The translations under genes were made by a program, and so were the position numbers. From NCBI GenBank assembly GCA_947595045.1, contig CANQEN010000001.1, forward strand, positions 1 through 57,149: a DNA stretch of 57,149 nt. Direction: 5' to 3'. Below the pieces are notes generated by a model. That model made no database searches and was not told where the DNA came from. It saw nothing but the letters and a program-made list of their open reading frames with translations. Positions 18,953 to 42,958 of this stretch are shown here, one piece after another (within the stretch, counting starts at the first letter, position 1; each line of letters opens with the position of its first letter). Origin of the DNA: an uncultured Bacilli bacterium. Its GTDB lineage: Bacteria; Bacillota_I; Bacilli_A; RF39; UBA660.

Positions 18953-19007
18953 ATGAACGTATTAAATTACTATGACTCATATAGGTCATGGCGGAAGGAG
19001 ATATGTT

Positions 19008-32587: not shown

Positions 32588-32995
32588 TTAGCTACACCAA
32601 TTTAAATTATGATTTAATGAATCAATAAAATCATTAATCGTTTTAGCTTCTTCAATAGCAATATTATATTCATTATTATCTAAAGTTATATGGTAATTAA
32701 AAAGATGAATATTATCTGATTGATAATCTTTTATTGAATCTCTTATTTTATTTATATTATATTCATATTTTCTAGAGAAAATAATAGTATTTTTATTATA
32801 GGTAGAAATACCTTTAATAAATTTATAAGTATTATCACTGTAAGCTATAAGAATATTAGATGGACAATTCATAGATATATTAGATATTTCTAATATTTTT
32901 TCTTTCTTTTTTATAATAAAACTATTAAATAATAAATAAATTAATATGAAAGTGGCAATAATTATGATTGATATAAATACTTTCTTTTTATTCAT
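32588..32995 (-). CDS. Hypothetical membrane-anchored 135-aa protein
   Basis: AAGGAG lies 7 nt before ATG 32995. One N-terminal TM helix (VFISIIIIATFILIYLLF). The rest has no known motif. Confidence 0.55.
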   Translation of the reverse strand: MNKKKVFISIIIIATFILIYLLFNSFIIKKKEKILEISNISMNCPSNILIAYSDNTYKFIKGISTYNKNTIIFSRKYEYNINKIRDSIKDYQSDNIHLFNYHITLDNNEYNIAIEEAKTINDFIDSLNHNLNWCS

Positions 32996-33139
32996 TAAAA
33001 CACTCCTTAGATTAATTCTATAGTAGCACAAATAAATAAGGAAAGCAATATTAAAAAAATAAGGATCATACTGTAAGTTTATTATAGTTTATTAATTTTT
33101 AATTAAAAATTTGATATAATATTGTTGGAGGTAATTAAT

Positions 33140-33757
33140 GTGAATTTTAGAAAAAATCTTATACATAATTTAATAAGTATGTCTGAACAAAAGAATGGCC
33201 TTTATGGTAAAATGGAAGGGTTTATTGGACCAAGTAAAGAAAATCAGCTGCTTTGGTATAAATTTTTAACGTATACACCAAAATGGCAAAAAGAATATAT
33301 AGAACAATTAATAAAAAAACAAGTTTCTGAAATATCAAGAGAAGAGCTAGATTATATAAAAGAATTTGAATGGCAACAACATATAGTAAATCATATGAGA
33401 TATTATATAACAAGCAATTGTAGAGTGATAGACTTTAAAGAAGTGACAAAATATTTAAATGAGCATAGTTTAAATAATATAATAAAATTGAAGTTAACAG
33501 AAGAAGAATTAAATATTGCTAATGGATTAGTCAATGAATATTTAAAAACAAACAATTGGATAAATTGGGTAAGAGTAAATAAAGAAAGAATTAATGAGTT
33601 ATCCATAATTGAATCTTATGTTTGGTATAAATTAAATACATATAAAAATGAAATTGGGCTAAAAGAATTAGAAGATAAAATTAATAATGATACTATGAAC
33701 AATGAAGTTATGCTTATCAAAAGTTTAAGAAATGCAGATGAAATAAGAGCAATATAG
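33140..33757 (+). CDS. Hypothetical 205-aa soluble protein
   Basis: GGAGGT at 33127-33132 favours the GTG 33140 start over TTG 33122. Trp-rich helical sequence with no recognisable motif. Confidence 0.5.
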   Translation: MNFRKNLIHNLISMSEQKNGLYGKMEGFIGPSKENQLLWYKFLTYTPKWQKEYIEQLIKKQVSEISREELDYIKEFEWQQHIVNHMRYYITSNCRVIDFKEVTKYLNEHSLNNIIKLKLTEEELNIANGLVNEYLKTNNWINWVRVNKERINELSIIESYVWYKLNTYKNEIGLKELEDKINNDTMNNEVMLIKSLRNADEIRAI

Positions 33758-33847
33758 GTATAAAAAATTAATAAATTATTTAAGAAGTAAATTAAGAGTA
33801 TAATAAATAAACAAAAATAATTAAGGAAGCAATTTAGATGAATACAA

Positions 33848-34210
33848 TTAAAGTTTATATGCCTTAGATATAGAATATTCAATATTTTTAGAATATTTTT
33901 TTTCATTTAAAGCAGAAGAAATATCTAATTTTTGAAAAATATTTTTTAGATAATCATATCCAATATTAAAATTATCATCATTGAAATCTTTGACCATCTT
34001 TTTATCGAATGTAATAGTTACTTTAGATGAAAGTTCATTTTTAAGAATTTCAATATAAATGGGGTCATCGAATTGTTTCTTTAGATCATATAAATAACCT
34101 AATTTTTGATAAACCTTTTATTTGACTTTATTATTAATTCTATAACAATCAACTATAGATAAATAGGTTTTTCCATTTTTAAATTTAGCTTGCTTTAAGA
34201 AAAAAGACAT
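33848..34210 (-). mobile_element. IS1634/IS4-like transposase N-terminal stub with an in-frame TAA (pseudogene)
   Basis: The minus strand reads MSFFLKQAKFKNGKTYLSIVDCYRINNKVK*KVYQKLGYLYDLKKQFDDPIYIEIL..GYDYLKNIFQKLDISSAL..*. This is the K.NGK.YLSIV..YR....K.....LGYL..L pattern of IS1634-family N-termini. The stop is at 34118-34120. Only ~120 codons remain. Confidence 0.6.
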
Positions 34211-34339
34211 ATTACATAAAAATACACAACATAAAAATAGAAAAGAATTGACAAAAGAAAAGCCTTATATAATAAGGTCTAATTATAAATTATATTTTTA
34301 TTTAACTACAAACCCAGGATAGTAAAATTAAAAAATATA

Positions 34340-34348
34340 TGCTATAAT
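34340..34348 (+). promoter_or_regulatory. Extended -10 promoter element upstream of the giant ORF
   Basis: TGcTATAAT lies 28 nt upstream of ATG 34377. There is no good -35 (TAGTAA). Confidence 0.4.
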
Positions 34349-34376
34349 GATATAAAATAAAGAGCGTGATTAATTT

Positions 34377-37300
34377 ATGTTTGGTAATATTTTAGATAAT
34401 TTTAAAATTAATAAATTTTTTAAGTTAATTGATGCTAATGATTATGGTAAAAATAAAAAGGCTAGCAAATTATTTGATAAACCTAAACTTAGGGTTAAAA
34501 TAATTAATGATCTAAGAATAGTAGATAGTATAACTACTAACTTTTTTGTAGAAACTTATAGTGCTGGTGATATTAAAAGATTAGGAACAATTTTTGATGA
34601 AATTACTAATGATGATATGTTAGTGTTAATGCTTGACAAATTATTGGAATATACCAAAAATCATCAATTAAATTTAATTGATAATTTTTCAAGTATAAAA
34701 AACATTTATGTCTCTCACTGCTATAAAAATACAGAATTAGATAATGCTATTAAAAATAAATTTGCTGATTTATTATATCAAACAGGAAAAAAATCCCTTT
34801 TTCCAACTGATTATATAGAACCTTTTATTAAAAATTTAACAAGTGAAGAAAAATTAAGTATATTTGATAGTGAATCAATGATAAAGTTTGTTACCACATA
34901 TCAAGGAAAAATAGATTATCATACTTGTGAAAATTTTATAAATAATATCATTGATGAACATGACAATGAGGGAGTAAAAAAACAAATTATATTAAATTCA
35001 GTGGATATCTTTATAAATGGAAAGGCGATAAATAGCTATTTAGAATATGTTAATACATATTTAGATAAAGATGGCATTGTGAAAATATTAACAGATAAGA
35101 GAATAATAAACAATATAGATATGAATAAAGATTATTATTTAGCTAAGAATTTAATTACTTTACTTAATAAAGTTGATGATACAAATATTATGTCTCAAGA
35201 TAATGATAAAACTCAAAGTATAGTTACTAAAAATCAGTTAATTGATGTATATTTTAAAAATTATAAATACCCTCATATTATCATAAACTATATAAAAGAA
35301 ATAAATGAGAAAGAAAAAGAACAGATTAGTGATAACACCTTTACAGCATTACTAAATTCTGTAGATTATGCAAAAAAGAATGAAGATATTATAAAAAATT
35401 ATTATGGTAGTAATGCACGATTTGTTTTTAATGCATTAGACCAATATGATGATAAAAATGCAAAACTATTAGAAATTAAAGCTAATATCAGTATTGAAGA
35501 AGTAATGGAATATGCTGTTCAAAATAATATCGATATACGTACGGTTTTAACGTATGCTAAGCAGCATAATATGGATTTATTTCAAGACCATATTGCACAA
35601 AAGTATAGTTCTGATGATAGTTATTTTAGAGAATTACCATATACTAAGGCAGATTTAATTAAATATTATAGGGGAAATGATAGTTATATATTTTTTGATA
35701 AATTAAGATTATGCAATGATAAAGAGAAAGTATTATTAGAATCTAATAATTATATAGATTTTAGTTTATTTCCATATTATGGTAATATTAGTTTAGATTT
35801 ATTCAAAGATTCATTTGCCAAGAAGTTTTGTAATAATGATAGTTATTTTAAAATATTACCAAATGAAAAGTTTTATTTAATAGATTATTATGCAGGAAAA
35901 GATGCTTTAATAGTGTTAAAATACTTAAAAGGCCATAGAAATATTAATGATATTAAAGCTTTTTGCCAAAGCAGAGGAATAGAATTGTTTGAAGAACAAG
36001 TTGCTAAGAAATATAGTAATTATTATGATTATTTTAGAATGCTACCAAAAGATAAAGAATATTTAAAAAAATATTGCGATAATTATGATAATGTATTATT
36101 TTTAGATAAATTATTACAAGCTGATGACAAAGAAAACTTTTTATTGCAATCTAATTTTTTTAATATTAATGCTTTGTTTGAATTTTGTGCTGATAATCAT
36201 TTAGCATTAGATTTATTTCAAGAAAAGTTTGCAATCAAATTTAGACAAAACGAAGATTATTTTAAAAGATTACCAAAAGAAAATGCTTCATTAATACAGT
36301 TTTATGCTGGCTTTGATGAAAATTTATTTTTGCAAAATTTAGTACTAGTTTCTAATAAAGAAGATATATTATTAAATTCAAATATTCATTTAATATATAT
36401 GAATAAATTAAGTAATTTCTGCCAAAATAATGGTATTGATTTATTTCAAAAAAAATTTGCAATGAAATTCAGTCATCTAGATAGTTACTTTGAATTATTG
36501 CCAGATGATAAATTTTTCTTAATAGATTACTATACAGGAAAAGATGTACTAATTGTTCTTAGATATTTAAAAGGTCATAGGAGTATTGATGAAATAATAA
36601 CTTTTTGCCAAAGCAGGGGAATAGAATTATTCTGTGATTTCGTTGCTGAAAAATTTAGTGATTATGATGAATATTTTAGAATGTTACCAGAAGATAGCGC
36701 TGATCTAATAAGATATTATAAGGGTACTAAAGAAGACATATTTGTAGATAAATTAGATTTATGCCATAATAAAAAATCTGTATTGCTATATTCTAATATT
36801 AATGTTAATAAATTCATTTATTTTTGTAATCATTACCATATAGATCCATTTGATTGGAATTCTGCTAAGCGTTATAGGTTTGATGATAGTTATTTTAGAG
36901 AATTACCACCATCTAAAGCAGATTTAATTAAATATTATGCTGGTCGGAATATACAATTATTTTCTAATAAATTAATGTCATGTAATAATAAAATTAATTT
37001 ATTATTTAATTCTAAAATTGGAACTGATATGAAAGAAATAGAAGAAATATATAATTATGCAAAAGAATATATGACCCCTTTAGAATTAAAAATATTAGAA
37101 AATTATATTCAAATAAATGATTATAATTTAAAGAATATATTTAAAGATTATATACTCAATAATATGGAATCAGTTACATTTGATACAATAGATAATGTTG
37201 CTGAAATATTAAAGAGATTGTCAACTTCTAATGCTAGTGAAATGTTAAACTTTAGAAGTGAAATAGCTACGCAATTGTTAAAATCAGCAAATCCAATTAA

Positions 37301-39773
37301 AAGTTTAAATAAAATTGAAGATATATTTATTAAAAACAATATACCAACAGTTGGAAAAATATATTCTTGTTTTGAAATATTACATCCCAATTTTCAAGGA
37401 TTTAATTTTGAAAGTTCGATGGTATCACCTGTACTTAAAAAATCATCAACTATGAATAAAAAATTAATAGTTTTCTCAGATTTAATTAAATCTTCATTTG
37501 GATCAAATAATAGGTCTGTAAATGCTTATTTAAAAAATATTGAGATTGGTTCTAAATTATATGAAAGGATAAAATTAGGACAAATTAAGTGTGATTCACT
37601 TGATGAATCACAAAAGGAAGAATTAATCACTTTTAGTAAACATTTATCAACTCTTTATAATAATACTATAAAAGGTAAAAAGGAAAATGAAACTTTTACT
37701 AATACGGGAGATATTTTAACTGGTATTTTAGAATTATCTAAAAAATTGTCACCAAATGGTACTTTGAATTATAATATAGGTGATAGAGTTATAAGAATGT
37801 TTTGTGGCTTTACTGGGATTGATACATTAGAACAAGCCAATAATTATATTAATCAGAAAATAAGAACTGCTGATACTAGAAATAGAAAGGCATCTAGTTC
37901 AGATATGATATTAGAACAAGGGGATTTTATTAAAGGAATTGGGGATATTACTTATTTAAGAAATATTTTACAAAATGGTAGTGTTTCTAAAGAATATTTA
38001 GGTTCTAGTGCAGGGAGTGATTCAACACCATTAGATACAGATGTATCTATGATTATTAAAGCTGATGGAACAATTAAAGATAAATTTAATGAAACAGCTG
38101 CCAATAGTTATGGCCCTATTTGGTTTGTATTAAAAAATGATGATAGGTTTATAACAACAAGAACCCAGAGTGAACATTTTGATGTTAAAAATGATATGTC
38201 CAAAATGGAAGTTTTTTATACTGGTGTTTGGGGTTCAGATCATTATGGAATAAGAACAGGATTTGCATCCAGTGAAATAAATTATATAGTTATGGATAGT
38301 TATGATCCAAGAGTTGGACTTGAAATTGCGATGAATGGTTTTTATATTCCAGTTGCAAATAAAGAAGGAAAAATAGTATTTACTCCTGATGATTATGATA
38401 AATTGAGAGAAAAAATGAATGGACTTTCATATTATAATGCAAATAATTATACATTCTCTGAAAATTTAGTAACTAAAGAAACAGAATATTTAGCTTCTCA
38501 AATAGAACAAAGTAATTATGAAACTCAAGTTAAAAGAACAAAAATAAATGAAATTATAAAAAAATCCCTTGAAGAATTAGGATTACATTTAAAAACTAAT
38601 ATAAATGGTGATTTGACGGAAGGATTTGTAGAGTTAATTGATACTGGTTCGACAGGTAGAGGTACAAATAAACCGGGGGATGGGGATTTTGACTTTATGA
38701 TGAGATTAGATAAATCAATATTTTCAAATAATACTAAATTAAATCAATTAAAAAATACATTATTAAAAAATTTAGGTAAAGAAAATACTGAAGAAGTCAT
38801 TAATAGTGGTGATTTTAGACTTAAAGAAGTTAAAATAGATAGTAACACTAATGTCGATATTGATATCACTTTTACAGAAAAAACAGATAAAGTTTCTTAT
38901 TCAACTGATATGGCTTTACAAGATAGACTTACTAATATAAAAAATATAAATGCAGAAAAGTATAAATATGTCGTTGCTAATATTCTTCTTGCAAAAGAAG
39001 TATTAAAAGAAGCTGAAGTATATAAGCCAGATCGTGGTGATATAGCACAAGGTGGTTTAGGGGGAGTAGGGATCGAAAATTGGATTTTACAAAATGGAGG
39101 ATCATTTATAGAAGCAGCTAATAGCTTTCTTGAAGCAGCAGAAGGTAAAAGTTTTGATGAGTTTAAAGTAAGTTATCGAATATGGGATTTTGGGGATAAT
39201 CATTTGGCTGAAAGACGAGGAAAATATGTTCATGATAATTTTGTAGTCAATAATATGAATGAAGATGGTTATTGTAAAATGAAAAAGGTATTAACAGAAT
39301 TTATTAAAGATAATAAATATGCGAATGAAGAACAAACCATTAAATATAAAGAATATGATAATAATAATATCGATGAGAAAACATTATTAAAATTGTCTAA
39401 ATTAGAAGTTATTACAGAACAAAGTATTGATGATTTACAAACGATAGTTAAAAATAAAGAGAGTAATAAAATAGTTAGTACAATAGCAACTAATTATGGT
39501 TTGAATAGTAATACAACTAGACTTATTGTTGAAGATGATTTTGCAATAGTATATGATACTATTGGTAATAAAGTCAGAATTGGGGATTTATTATGTTCTA
39601 AAATGAATAGTGAAGTAAAAGATAATATTTGTAAAGCTTTAGGACAATTAGGTAGTAATGTTGATTTATCATTATTAGATAAGCAAAAATTACAGATATA
39701 TAATAAAGTTATGAATTTAAATAATCAAGTTGGTATGAATATTAACATAGGAGAACAACACAAAACAATATAA
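34377..39773 (+). CDS. Giant 1,798-aa multidomain protein: N-terminal helical region, 7 tandem repeats, unknown central domain, C-terminal Pol-beta-type nucleotidyltransferase
   Basis: Uninterrupted 5,397-nt ORF. Repeats span aa 400-900. The NTase signature GSTGRGTNKPGDGDFDF is at aa 1424-1440, with a candidate third carboxylate in VDIDITF (aa 1493-1499). The downstream helix ILLAKEVLKEAEVYKPDRGDIAQGGLGGVGIENWILQNGGSF resembles the class-I CCA/PAP/OAS substrate-binding domain. No signal peptide or TM helix by eye. Confidence 0.8.
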   Translation: MFGNILDNFKINKFFKLIDANDYGKNKKASKLFDKPKLRVKIINDLRIVDSITTNFFVETYSAGDIKRLGTIFDEITNDDMLVLMLDKLLEYTKNHQLNLIDNFSSIKNIYVSHCYKNTELDNAIKNKFADLLYQTGKKSLFPTDYIEPFIKNLTSEEKLSIFDSESMIKFVTTYQGKIDYHTCENFINNIIDEHDNEGVKKQIILNSVDIFINGKAINSYLEYVNTYLDKDGIVKILTDKRIINNIDMNKDYYLAKNLITLLNKVDDTNIMSQDNDKTQSIVTKNQLIDVYFKNYKYPHIIINYIKEINEKEKEQISDNTFTALLNSVDYAKKNEDIIKNYYGSNARFVFNALDQYDDKNAKLLEIKANISIEEVMEYAVQNNIDIRTVLTYAKQHNMDLFQDHIAQKYSSDDSYFRELPYTKADLIKYYRGNDSYIFFDKLRLCNDKEKVLLESNNYIDFSLFPYYGNISLDLFKDSFAKKFCNNDSYFKILPNEKFYLIDYYAGKDALIVLKYLKGHRNINDIKAFCQSRGIELFEEQVAKKYSNYYDYFRMLPKDKEYLKKYCDNYDNVLFLDKLLQADDKENFLLQSNFFNINALFEFCADNHLALDLFQEKFAIKFRQNEDYFKRLPKENASLIQFYAGFDENLFLQNLVLVSNKEDILLNSNIHLIYMNKLSNFCQNNGIDLFQKKFAMKFSHLDSYFELLPDDKFFLIDYYTGKDVLIVLRYLKGHRSIDEIITFCQSRGIELFCDFVAEKFSDYDEYFRMLPEDSADLIRYYKGTKEDIFVDKLDLCHNKKSVLLYSNINVNKFIYFCNHYHIDPFDWNSAKRYRFDDSYFRELPPSKADLIKYYAGRNIQLFSNKLMSCNNKINLLFNSKIGTDMKEIEEIYNYAKEYMTPLELKILENYIQINDYNLKNIFKDYILNNMESVTFDTIDNVAEILKRLSTSNASEMLNFRSEIATQLLKSANPIKSLNKIEDIFIKNNIPTVGKIYSCFEILHPNFQGFNFESSMVSPVLKKSSTMNKKLIVFSDLIKSSFGSNNRSVNAYLKNIEIGSKLYERIKLGQIKCDSLDESQKEELITFSKHLSTLYNNTIKGKKENETFTNTGDILTGILELSKKLSPNGTLNYNIGDRVIRMFCGFTGIDTLEQANNYINQKIRTADTRNRKASSSDMILEQGDFIKGIGDITYLRNILQNGSVSKEYLGSSAGSDSTPLDTDVSMIIKADGTIKDKFNETAANSYGPIWFVLKNDDRFITTRTQSEHFDVKNDMSKMEVFYTGVWGSDHYGIRTGFASSEINYIVMDSYDPRVGLEIAMNGFYIPVANKEGKIVFTPDDYDKLREKMNGLSYYNANNYTFSENLVTKETEYLASQIEQSNYETQVKRTKINEIIKKSLEELGLHLKTNINGDLTEGFVELIDTGSTGRGTNKPGDGDFDFMMRLDKSIFSNNTKLNQLKNTLLKNLGKENTEEVINSGDFRLKEVKIDSNTNVDIDITFTEKTDKVSYSTDMALQDRLTNIKNINAEKYKYVVANILLAKEVLKEAEVYKPDRGDIAQGGLGGVGIENWILQNGGSFIEAANSFLEAAEGKSFDEFKVSYRIWDFGDNHLAERRGKYVHDNFVVNNMNEDGYCKMKKVLTEFIKDNKYANEEQTIKYKEYDNNNIDEKTLLKLSKLEVITEQSIDDLQTIVKNKESNKIVSTIATNYGLNSNTTRLIVEDDFAIVYDTIGNKVRIGDLLCSKMNSEVKDNICKALGQLGSNVDLSLLDKQKLQIYNKVMNLNNQVGMNINIGEQHKTI
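35574..37076 (+). repeat. Seven in-frame tandem repeats (62-76 aa) forming a ~640-nt higher-order repeat inside the giant ORF
   Basis: Unit starts are at aa 400, 474, 536, 612, 688, 750 and 823. Each unit is (D/E)(L/P)F...(A)(K)(K/R)(F/Y)...D.YF(R/K).LP..K..LI.YY.G and ends in FC....(I)(D/E)LF. Units starting at aa 474 and 688 (and at 536 and 750) are 214 aa apart and are closest to each other. Confidence 0.85.
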
Positions 39774-42824: not shown

Positions 42825-42958
42825 CAATTTATGTGTGGCGTGCTATGATGTGTGAGGTTGCCGATACACCAGGTTAAGTTGTTAACAAAAATAAAATAAT
42901 AGTCGGGTTTTTACACGGAGCAAGTCTATACGAGATATAGGCGAAGGGAGGACGAAAA

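Follow-up and report, generated by a model that had tools for sequence, protein, structure and literature searches.

CCA-adding enzymes, poly(A) and poly(U) polymerases, oligoadenylate synthetases (OAS), cGAS and the cyclases of CBASS belong to a clade of nucleotidyltransferases (NTases) whose members have central parts in the maturation of RNA and, in organisms ranging from bacteria to humans, in innate immunity. Class I CCA-adding enzymes have a head-neck-body-tail architecture and hold tRNA by their body and tail domains, and the CD-NTases of CBASS are two-lobed. The MNT proteins of MNT-HEPN pairs are small (~100–150 aa), single-lobed and encoded beside a HEPN gene. Here we describe an NTase domain in a giant protein encoded on a 57,149-nucleotide stretch of DNA from an uncultured Bacilli bacterium (contig CANQEN010000001.1 of assembly GCA_947595045.1), referred to below as the window. 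The giant open reading frame (ORF), P0001, had been predicted from its letters to carry a domain of the OAS/cGAS/class I CCA type. Judged from a structure model and from the conservation of the catalytic residues, residues 1385–1650 of its product are very probably an active NTase of the clade that holds archaeal CCA-adding enzymes, poly(A) polymerases (PAP) and terminal uridylyltransferases (TUTases), OAS, cGAS and the CD-NTases. The domain is placed within this structural clade and not within any single one of the CCA, OAS or CD-NTase families.

The range flagged in the original prediction, positions 38559–39176 in frame 1 of the forward strand, translated to a sequence identical to the one quoted and lies inside the single ORF 34377..39773, in which residue n begins at nucleotide 34377+3(n−1). 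The full NTase domain is wider than this range and spans 266 residues (nucleotides 38529–39326). It had been placed at the end of a giant protein; the giant protein stands, but a 148-residue tail follows the domain, which is thus near the end. An AlphaFold2 (AF2) model of the domain was built from an alignment of 53 NTase-domain homologues (alignment A1; 42–79% identity in a search with aa 1385–1660). The model had a pLDDT of 90.3 and a pTM of 0.83, with two lobes, the first alpha/beta and the second helical. Foldseek searches against the PDB returned 16 matches at E ≤ 1e-3, all of them NTase-fold proteins. The top match was the A. fulgidus class I CCA-adding enzyme (1r89, E 1.6e-5, query-normalised TM-score (TMq) 0.54; 3ouy, TMq 0.57), and the second-best was E. 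coli CdnC (6u7b, E 8.4e-5), followed by the NF90/NF45 DZF domain and OAS1 (5e-4). Further matches included CdnD/E, cGAS and cGLR, trypanosomal and human TUTases, and Trf4. The top 50 Foldseek matches were all class I CCA, CD-NTase, OAS, cGAS/cGLR, NF90/NF45 (DZF), TUTase or TRAMP poly(A) polymerase cores. Most of these groups are comprised in Clade 1 of a published structural classification (PMC11646218). The modelled domain has the palm and the helical second lobe sandwiching the active site, and its nearest structural neighbours lie within the clade. A Pol-beta NTase of the CCA/OAS/cGAS type, as originally proposed, was thus retrieved by the fold search, with class I CCA, CdnC, OAS1 and cGAS all among the matches.

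Weak profile matches agree with the fold search. When the 53 members of A1 were scanned one by one, Pfam NTP_transf_2 was matched in 17 (best E 1.6e-5), SMODS in 10 (best 7.9e-5) and DNA_pol_B_palm in 3, and the PADLOC CBASS cyclase profile PDLC00776 was matched in 39, over profile positions ~38–93 of 287 with E-values of 1e-5 to 1e-2. The NTP_transf_2, SMODS and PADLOC cyclase matches were all located on the palm lobe. The domain of the window protein itself scored 16.2 bits against NTP_transf_2, below the cut-off of 21. By sequence alone the domain is dark, because neither the library scans nor the PDB sequence searches gave an NTase. Pfam, NCBIfam and PHROG scans of the whole giant protein returned nothing above noise or cut-off. 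PADLOC gave one marginal match to a CBASS oligonucleotide cyclase (aa 1413–1466, E 0.001) and did not call the protein as any system. Segments of 41–60 residues around the motifs, searched against PDB sequences, found no NTase.

The catalytic motifs are complete. The Pol-beta motif hG[GS]-x9-13-Dh[DE]h is matched by TGSTGRGTNKPGDGDFDFMM, and the stricter pattern GS.G[KR]GT.{6}D.D occurred once among all six-frame ORFs of the window and in 0 of 2000 shuffles of the giant protein. The third catalytic carboxylate, D1496, lies on strand 107–117 of the AF2 model. In the helical lobe we found K1540, K1544, Y1549, K1550, GGLGGVGIENWILQNGGSF and a conserved D1604-x-G-x-N-H stretch; the helix motif running from K1540 to F1577 is present and reads KEVLKEAEVYKPDRGDIAQGGLGGVGIENWILQNGGSF. 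Conservation was counted over 365 homologues, including 141 representatives of 50%-identity clusters, with denominators of 331–344. G1424 and S1425 were each conserved in 331 of 331 homologues, R1428 in 332/332, D1437 in 333/333 and D1439 in 331/332. D1496 was kept in 340 of 344, with Glu in three others, and K1540, Y1549 and E1567 were each found in 342/342. Within A1, the G-S pair and R1428 were invariant, and D1437, D1439 and D1496 were present in 52 of the 53 members. The D-x-D pair and the third carboxylate, put forward as the catalytic signature before any homologue had been aligned, are therefore conserved in essentially all homologues. These counts also bear on the idea that the domain is a catalytically dead NTase-fold scaffold for binding or dimerisation, like NF45/NF90 DZF or MiD51. 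The NF90/NF45 DZF domain is among the fold matches, and DZF_N was faintly matched in two members. Dead NTase homologues, however, characteristically lose catalytic residues, whereas the three carboxylates, the G-S loop and the nucleotide-binding Lys and Tyr are invariant over hundreds of homologues at ~40–80% identity, and we consider a dead scaffold extremely improbable.

The sequences of OAS1 and of the A. fulgidus CCA-adding enzyme (AfCCA) were retrieved from the PDB using short motif fragments as bait and compared with the window domain. In human OAS1 (residues 55–92), G-S-S-G-K-G-T-x6-D-A-D aligned without gaps to G-S-T-G-R-G-T-x6-D-F-D of the window (DTGSTGRGTNKPGDGDFDF), so that the OAS spacing named in the original prediction is found in the actual protein. 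OAS1 (human 4ig8, porcine 4rwp) was a fold match at E 5e-4, but with a lower TM-score (0.44–0.45) and a root-mean-square deviation above 10 Å. OAS1_C had no match in the Pfam scans of the 53 members, and the surface by which OAS binds double-stranded RNA is not indicated in the window domain.

The likeness to OAS leads to the main rival explanation, in which the domain would synthesise a signal, as OAS and CD-NTases do, within a defence system made of a single polypeptide. The N-terminus would sense an invader and switch on the NTase, and a linear 2'-5' or cyclic oligonucleotide would then activate an effector, either the adjacent ADP-ribosyltransferase (ART)-like domain or an unlinked protein. 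The G-S...D-x-D spacing is the same as in OAS1, CdnC is the second-best fold match with CdnD/E, OAS1 and cGAS further down, and the CBASS cyclase and SMODS profiles were matched in 39 and 10 of the 53 members. In addition, the N-terminus diverges faster than the enzymatic module and is replaced in the window protein, as expected of a sensor in an arms race. The profile matches are weak, however, and cover only the generic palm. The CD-NTases of CBASS (CdnC 6u7b, CdnD 6p82, CdnE 6e0n) share the two-lobed fold with the window domain, but the window has no such operon, with no effector, Cap2/3 or HORMA/TRIP13 gene nearby, and the enzyme is instead fused to ~1400 residues of other sequence. Across 79 loci from GTDB species genomes, no effector or other conserved gene adjoined the giant gene, and Pfam and PADLOC revealed no SAVED, STING or CARF-type sensor domain on the protein or its relatives. 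Considering also that PADLOC does not recognise the giant protein as a system, we regard a signal synthase as rather unlikely.

AfCCA is the best structural match, with a TMq of 0.54–0.57 over ~280 columns. Its neck, K152-x3-K156...Y161...GFSGY...E176...GSF, is in register with K1540...Y1549...GLGGV...E1567...GGSF of the window protein, giving the equivalences K1540~K152, K1544~K156, Y1549~Y161, G-L-G-G~G-F-S-G, E1567~E176 and G-S-F~G-S-F. When A1 was aligned by hhalign to an AfCCA fragment (residues 148–192, of which 149–187 aligned), 39 columns were matched at 33% identity (P 0.033), on the predicted neck helix. This alignment is statistically modest, yet its register agrees with that of the independent fold match, and it suggests that the resemblance to the helix of archaeal class I CCA-adding enzymes, noticed in the original prediction, is real. 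The two motifs differ in that AfCCA Y173 corresponds to V1564, and two small indels separate them. The spacing from G-S to the first carboxylate is presumably the same in AfCCA as in the window domain. A genuine archaeal class I-type tRNA CCA-adding enzyme, acquired for tRNA maturation, would account for both the best fold match and the neck motif. Only the head and neck are matched, however (~280 of the 437 residues of 1r89; target-normalised TM-score 0.36), and the tRNA-binding body and tail domains are missing. Pfam tRNA_NucTransf2 had no match in the 53 members, the domain sits inside giant proteins whose N-termini vary, and at least one metagenome-assembled genome (MAG) has two copies. 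Furthermore, the gene is often split or disrupted by insertion sequences (IS), unlike an essential housekeeping enzyme. A tRNA CCA-adding role is therefore very unlikely.

Pol-beta NTases with a G-S...D-x-D core do AMPylate proteins, examples being MNT of MNT-HEPN, GlnE and DrrA. The window domain could likewise be a protein nucleotidylyltransferase (AMPylase), like the MNT antitoxins, GlnE and DrrA, acting on Tyr, Ser or Thr of another protein or of itself. NTP_transf_2 is the most frequent Pfam match, and there are weak matches to AbiEii and HEPN_RiboL-PSP among the members. Against this, protein AMPylases make up 0 of the top 50 structural neighbours, and the domain is large and two-lobed, with a highly conserved second lobe that resembles that of CCA and OAS enzymes. 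At 266 residues, within a giant ORF and without a HEPN neighbour, it does not have the minimal MNT pattern, as had been supposed from the motif spacing. We consider AMPylation of a protein to be distinctly unlikely, although less so than tRNA CCA addition.

The HEPN_RiboL-PSP match (39045–39308, aa 1557–1644) falls on the helical lobe, with an E-value of 0.006 in the window protein and matches in 3 of the 53 members (best 3.2e-7). An [RK]x4H motif (RGKYVH) is present in this lobe and is poorly conserved. The reading of the lobe as a HEPN RNase was rejected, as the matches are weak and the motif is not conserved; the match is probably a generic helical-bundle resemblance rather than an RNase.

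By analogy with the matched enzymes, the G-S loop and R1428 would position the triphosphate of the incoming NTP, D1437, D1439 and D1496 would hold two Mg2+ ions, and K1540, Y1549 and K1550 of the helical lobe would complete the nucleotide pocket. An NMP would then be moved from the NTP to a ribose hydroxyl by two-metal chemistry. We infer that the acceptor may be an RNA end or a nucleotide-like molecule, whose 3'(2')-OH the NTase would nucleotidylate directly, and we hold this to be plausible, somewhat short of an even chance. Direct nucleotidylation is favoured because the best structural and motif match is the CCA-adding enzyme, and because there is no partner or effector gene and a direct modifier needs fewer unseen components than a signalling enzyme. 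Recognition of the target, or regulation, would be the task of the large N-terminal region, and the NTase would be the enzymatic end of a self-contained giant protein in which a conserved module follows a fast-evolving or exchangeable N-terminus.

Several observations weigh against this interpretation. The Foldseek TM-scores are moderate (0.45–0.57), and sequence-only searches of the PDB (phmmer and hmmsearch, with the protein and with the profiles A1 and A2) recovered no NTase. The scores of CdnC and of the CBASS cyclase profiles come close to that of the CCA-adding enzyme, so oligonucleotide synthesis is possible. The family is without the body and tail domains by which class I CCA-adding enzymes hold tRNA, and the role given to the N-terminus is conjecture, the window N-terminus being without homologues. 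Nevertheless, an active NTase of the clade acting on an RNA end or nucleotide-like acceptor is the best overall explanation, and the slight preference we give to the combination as a whole is a compromise between the confidence in its two parts. The features of the giant gene and its upstream neighbours are summarized in the table.

Table. Coordinates of the giant gene, its domains and motifs, and the reading frames upstream of it
Feature	Position in window	Strand	Residues or size	Basis or remarks
Giant ORF (P0001)	34377..39773	+	1798 aa	ORF list and translation
N-terminal region	34377..37085	+	aa 1–903	75 relatives align only from ~aa 904
Seven tandem repeats	35532..37085	+	aa ~386–903; 62–76 aa each	Regular expression and unit alignment
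All-helical first part of conserved module	37086..37892	+	aa 904–1172	Homology boundary in most of 75 relatives; AF2
Alpha/beta domain, possibly ART-like	37923..38441	+	aa 1183–1355	AF2; weak ADP-ribosyltransferase-like fold matches
Predicted NTase catalytic (palm/head) lobe	38529..38891	+	aa 1385–1505	AF2 model, Foldseek, conservation, profile matches
G-S motif	38646-38651	+	G1424-S1425	Palm lobe; translation checked
D-x-D motif	38685-38693	+	D1437-F-D1439	Palm lobe; translation checked
Third carboxylate	38862-38864	+	D1496 in VDIDITF	Palm lobe; translation checked
Predicted NTase helical second lobe (neck, or PAP/OAS substrate-binding-type)	38892..39326	+	aa 1506–1650	Model helices, invariant columns
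C-terminal tail	39327..39770	+	aa 1651–1798; 148 residues	Outside conserved module
Unknown ORF	32588-33031	-	147 aa	Upstream of giant gene; no Pfam/NCBIfam match
Unknown ORF	33122-33757	+	211 aa	Upstream of giant gene; no Pfam/NCBIfam match
Decayed reading frame	33848-34210	-	~120 codons	Just upstream of giant gene; one internal stop, reading MSFFLKQAKFKNGKTYLSIVDCYRINNKVK, stop, KVYQKLGYLYDL and onward

The NTase is the last part of a larger conserved module. BLASTP comparison of the window protein with 75 relatives showed that homology begins sharply at ~aa 904 and stops at ~1650. The module thus covers aa 904–1650 (~745 residues) and consists of a helical domain, an alpha/beta domain and the NTase. 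An AF2 model of aa 916–1384 (pLDDT 89.3) gave a helical domain of ~255 residues (model residues 3–257), followed by an alpha/beta domain of ~175 residues. The helical domain had no fold match in Foldseek. For the alpha/beta domain, Foldseek against the PDB gave DarT1 (8baq, E 0.15, probability 0.63), then Thermus DarT, tankyrase and cholix toxin, and a search of BFVD gave the iridovirus PARP-like 100L (probability 0.77), VIP2 and DUF3626, with a best E-value of 0.036. ART-fold proteins therefore recur among the matches, yet all have E-values above 0.01. Alignment by hhalign to a verified PARP1 ART core was null (P 0.41), and scans with the Pfam ART families and with PHROG gave nothing, so an assignment of the middle domain to ARTs by sequence was rejected.

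The invariant residues of the alpha/beta domain are D1183, D1215, P1218, E1278, F1280, G1291-I-R-T-G1295, Y1323 and P1325. E1278 is on a strand, and the first strand is without the conserved His or Arg of the ART triad (H-Y-E or R-S-E). At the first ART motif, a conserved Lys (K1186) presumably stands in place of the His or Arg of ARTs. Because the fold matches are recurrent but weak and the sequence tests are unsupportive, we label the domain only as possibly ART-like. RNA-repair systems include both the ART-fold protein KptA and template-independent NTases (PMC9503650), and we take the link of an ART fold with an NTase in RNA repair as a lead only.

The pairing of the two domains suggests another explanation, which we consider improbable, somewhat more so than a signal synthase. 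The conserved module could be a self-contained conflict or RNA-modifying machine, in which the NTase and the ART-like domain act on the same substrate and the N-terminus sets the target or trigger. The NTase might, for example, lengthen or cap an adduct (ADP-ribose or on an RNA end) that the neighbouring domain has made, or it might produce the signal that activates that domain. If true, this would be a single-gene sensor-effector system of small-genome gut Bacilli with no described counterpart.

The part of the window protein upstream of the module differs from that of its relatives. It ends in tandem repeats with the signature [YF]F[RKE]xLP...LIxYY...LLxSN, and it has no Pfam match. Compared with the N-termini of the 75 relatives, it showed no homology apart from a weak match of the repeats (30%) in locus L068, and hhalign of the relatives' N-terminal profile against it gave a probability of 0.1. 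The N-termini of the relatives (~750 aa) are mostly similar to one another, 59 of 67 falling in one cluster, and their sequences change more quickly than that of the module (at 70–80% module identity, the median identity of the N-termini is 53%). This common N-terminus is a second uncharacterised domain family, which is absent from the window protein. In loci L003–L081 it contains repeated '...F(R/K)...(E/D)LF(I/L)...AP(E)EL...FY' motifs, and it is not matched in Pfam.

The C-terminal tail of the window protein is missing from nearly all relatives and is common only to L068 (47% identity). In sequence comparison the window protein is thus atypical, since its N-terminus is unlike those of the relatives and has been replaced, and since, L068 apart, its 148-residue tail is private to it. 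A stretch at 33001–36500, which spans the spacer upstream of the giant gene and the gene's 5' third, has a GC content of ~21%, with flanks of 26–33%; the drop is consistent with an N-terminal segment that was recently acquired or is fast-evolving. The giant protein has no hydrophobic segment (maximum 19-residue Kyte-Doolittle mean 0.94), and for this reason it is probably cytoplasmic and is predicted to be soluble.

The size and distribution of the family were examined by searches with different parts of the protein. The full-length search, in which scoring was confined to the 8000 database proteins with the most short exact words in common with the query, found three relatives, all sharing aa ~916–1650. 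A search with aa 1385–1660 alone found 191 proteins, and one with aa 916–1384 found 134, nearly all of which have the NTase too. An exhaustive profile search returned 954 clusters at 50% identity (E ≤ 1e-3), of which 689 were at E ≤ 1e-30. In these clusters, whose proteins have 1000–6114 aa (typically 1000–1700 aa), the NTase occupies the C-terminal end or lies close to it. At least 467 matching stretches were found in species genomes. At the 79 loci, the NTase ORF is usually 1300–1700 aa long and reaches more than 4600 aa, and the ORFs of the relatives usually stop ~15 residues past the NTase. A protein identical to P0001 is present on two further contigs (L001, L002). Nearly all hosts are uncultured MAGs from gut or rumen that are labelled Bacilli, Tenericutes, Clostridia or Saccharibacteria, and one of the MAGs, MGBC165900, has two paralogous copies of the giant gene on different contigs (L033, L063).

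Stand-alone forms of 250–800 aa were rejected as real genes, being contig-end fragments, a split gene or a truncation flanked by an IS element. At L083 (4669–9142) the giant gene is split, its two ORFs (782 and 713 aa) overlapping, and at L082 (6211–9382) it is truncated beside an IS3-type integrase gene. Because of this splitting and IS-adjacent truncation, these observations suggest that the giant gene is dispensable, at least in some lineages.

The module was not found in INPHARED phages, PLSDB plasmids or IMG/VR contigs, and a phage, plasmid or polyvalent-protein origin was rejected for lack of a match in these collections. A polymorphic toxin was also rejected, as the polarity is reversed, with a conserved C-terminus and a variable N-terminus, and there is neither a hydrophobic segment nor a conserved neighbour. 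A class I/OAS-like domain in a giant bacterial protein had been thought unusual, in accordance with which no Pfam, NCBIfam or PHROG family covers the protein and no description of the family was found in the literature searched. The superfamily and the structural clade are known; neither the profile libraries nor the searched literature describe the family, its architecture or its phyletic niche.

The window has ~25% GC and is a Firmicutes-type chromosome segment. Rfam identified S10-Clostridia and L31-Firmicutes ribosomal-protein leaders (42837–42944 and 18970–19000, respectively), which are consistent with a Firmicutes chromosome. The giant gene is flanked by ychF/cmpB and two unknown ORFs on one side and by rpsF-ssb on the other. 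Both unknown ORFs accompany the giant gene only on the two contigs that encode the identical protein. Across the 79 loci there was no recurrent neighbour gene family beside the giant gene, and a conserved operon partner was rejected on this basis. The N-terminus of the decayed frame just upstream resembles, as we take it, IS1634-type transposases, which would make the frame a decayed mobile-element remnant; NCBIfam gave no match for it. A scan for promoters and terminators was uninformative in DNA of 25% GC, with 69 sites found and 62 expected.

The family is a large branch of its clade that is invisible to Pfam, NCBIfam, PHROGs and, effectively, PADLOC. Its setting is unusual, as the NTase is always found within giant proteins, without partner genes, in uncultured gut Bacilli. 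The module boundary (aa 904–1650) and the invariant residues offer a ready construct and mutants. Characterisation of the family could bring to light a nucleotide signal or an RNA-end modification not seen before, and it could explain the genes of 4–15 kb that are kept by these bacteria, including some with contigs of less than 1 Mb.

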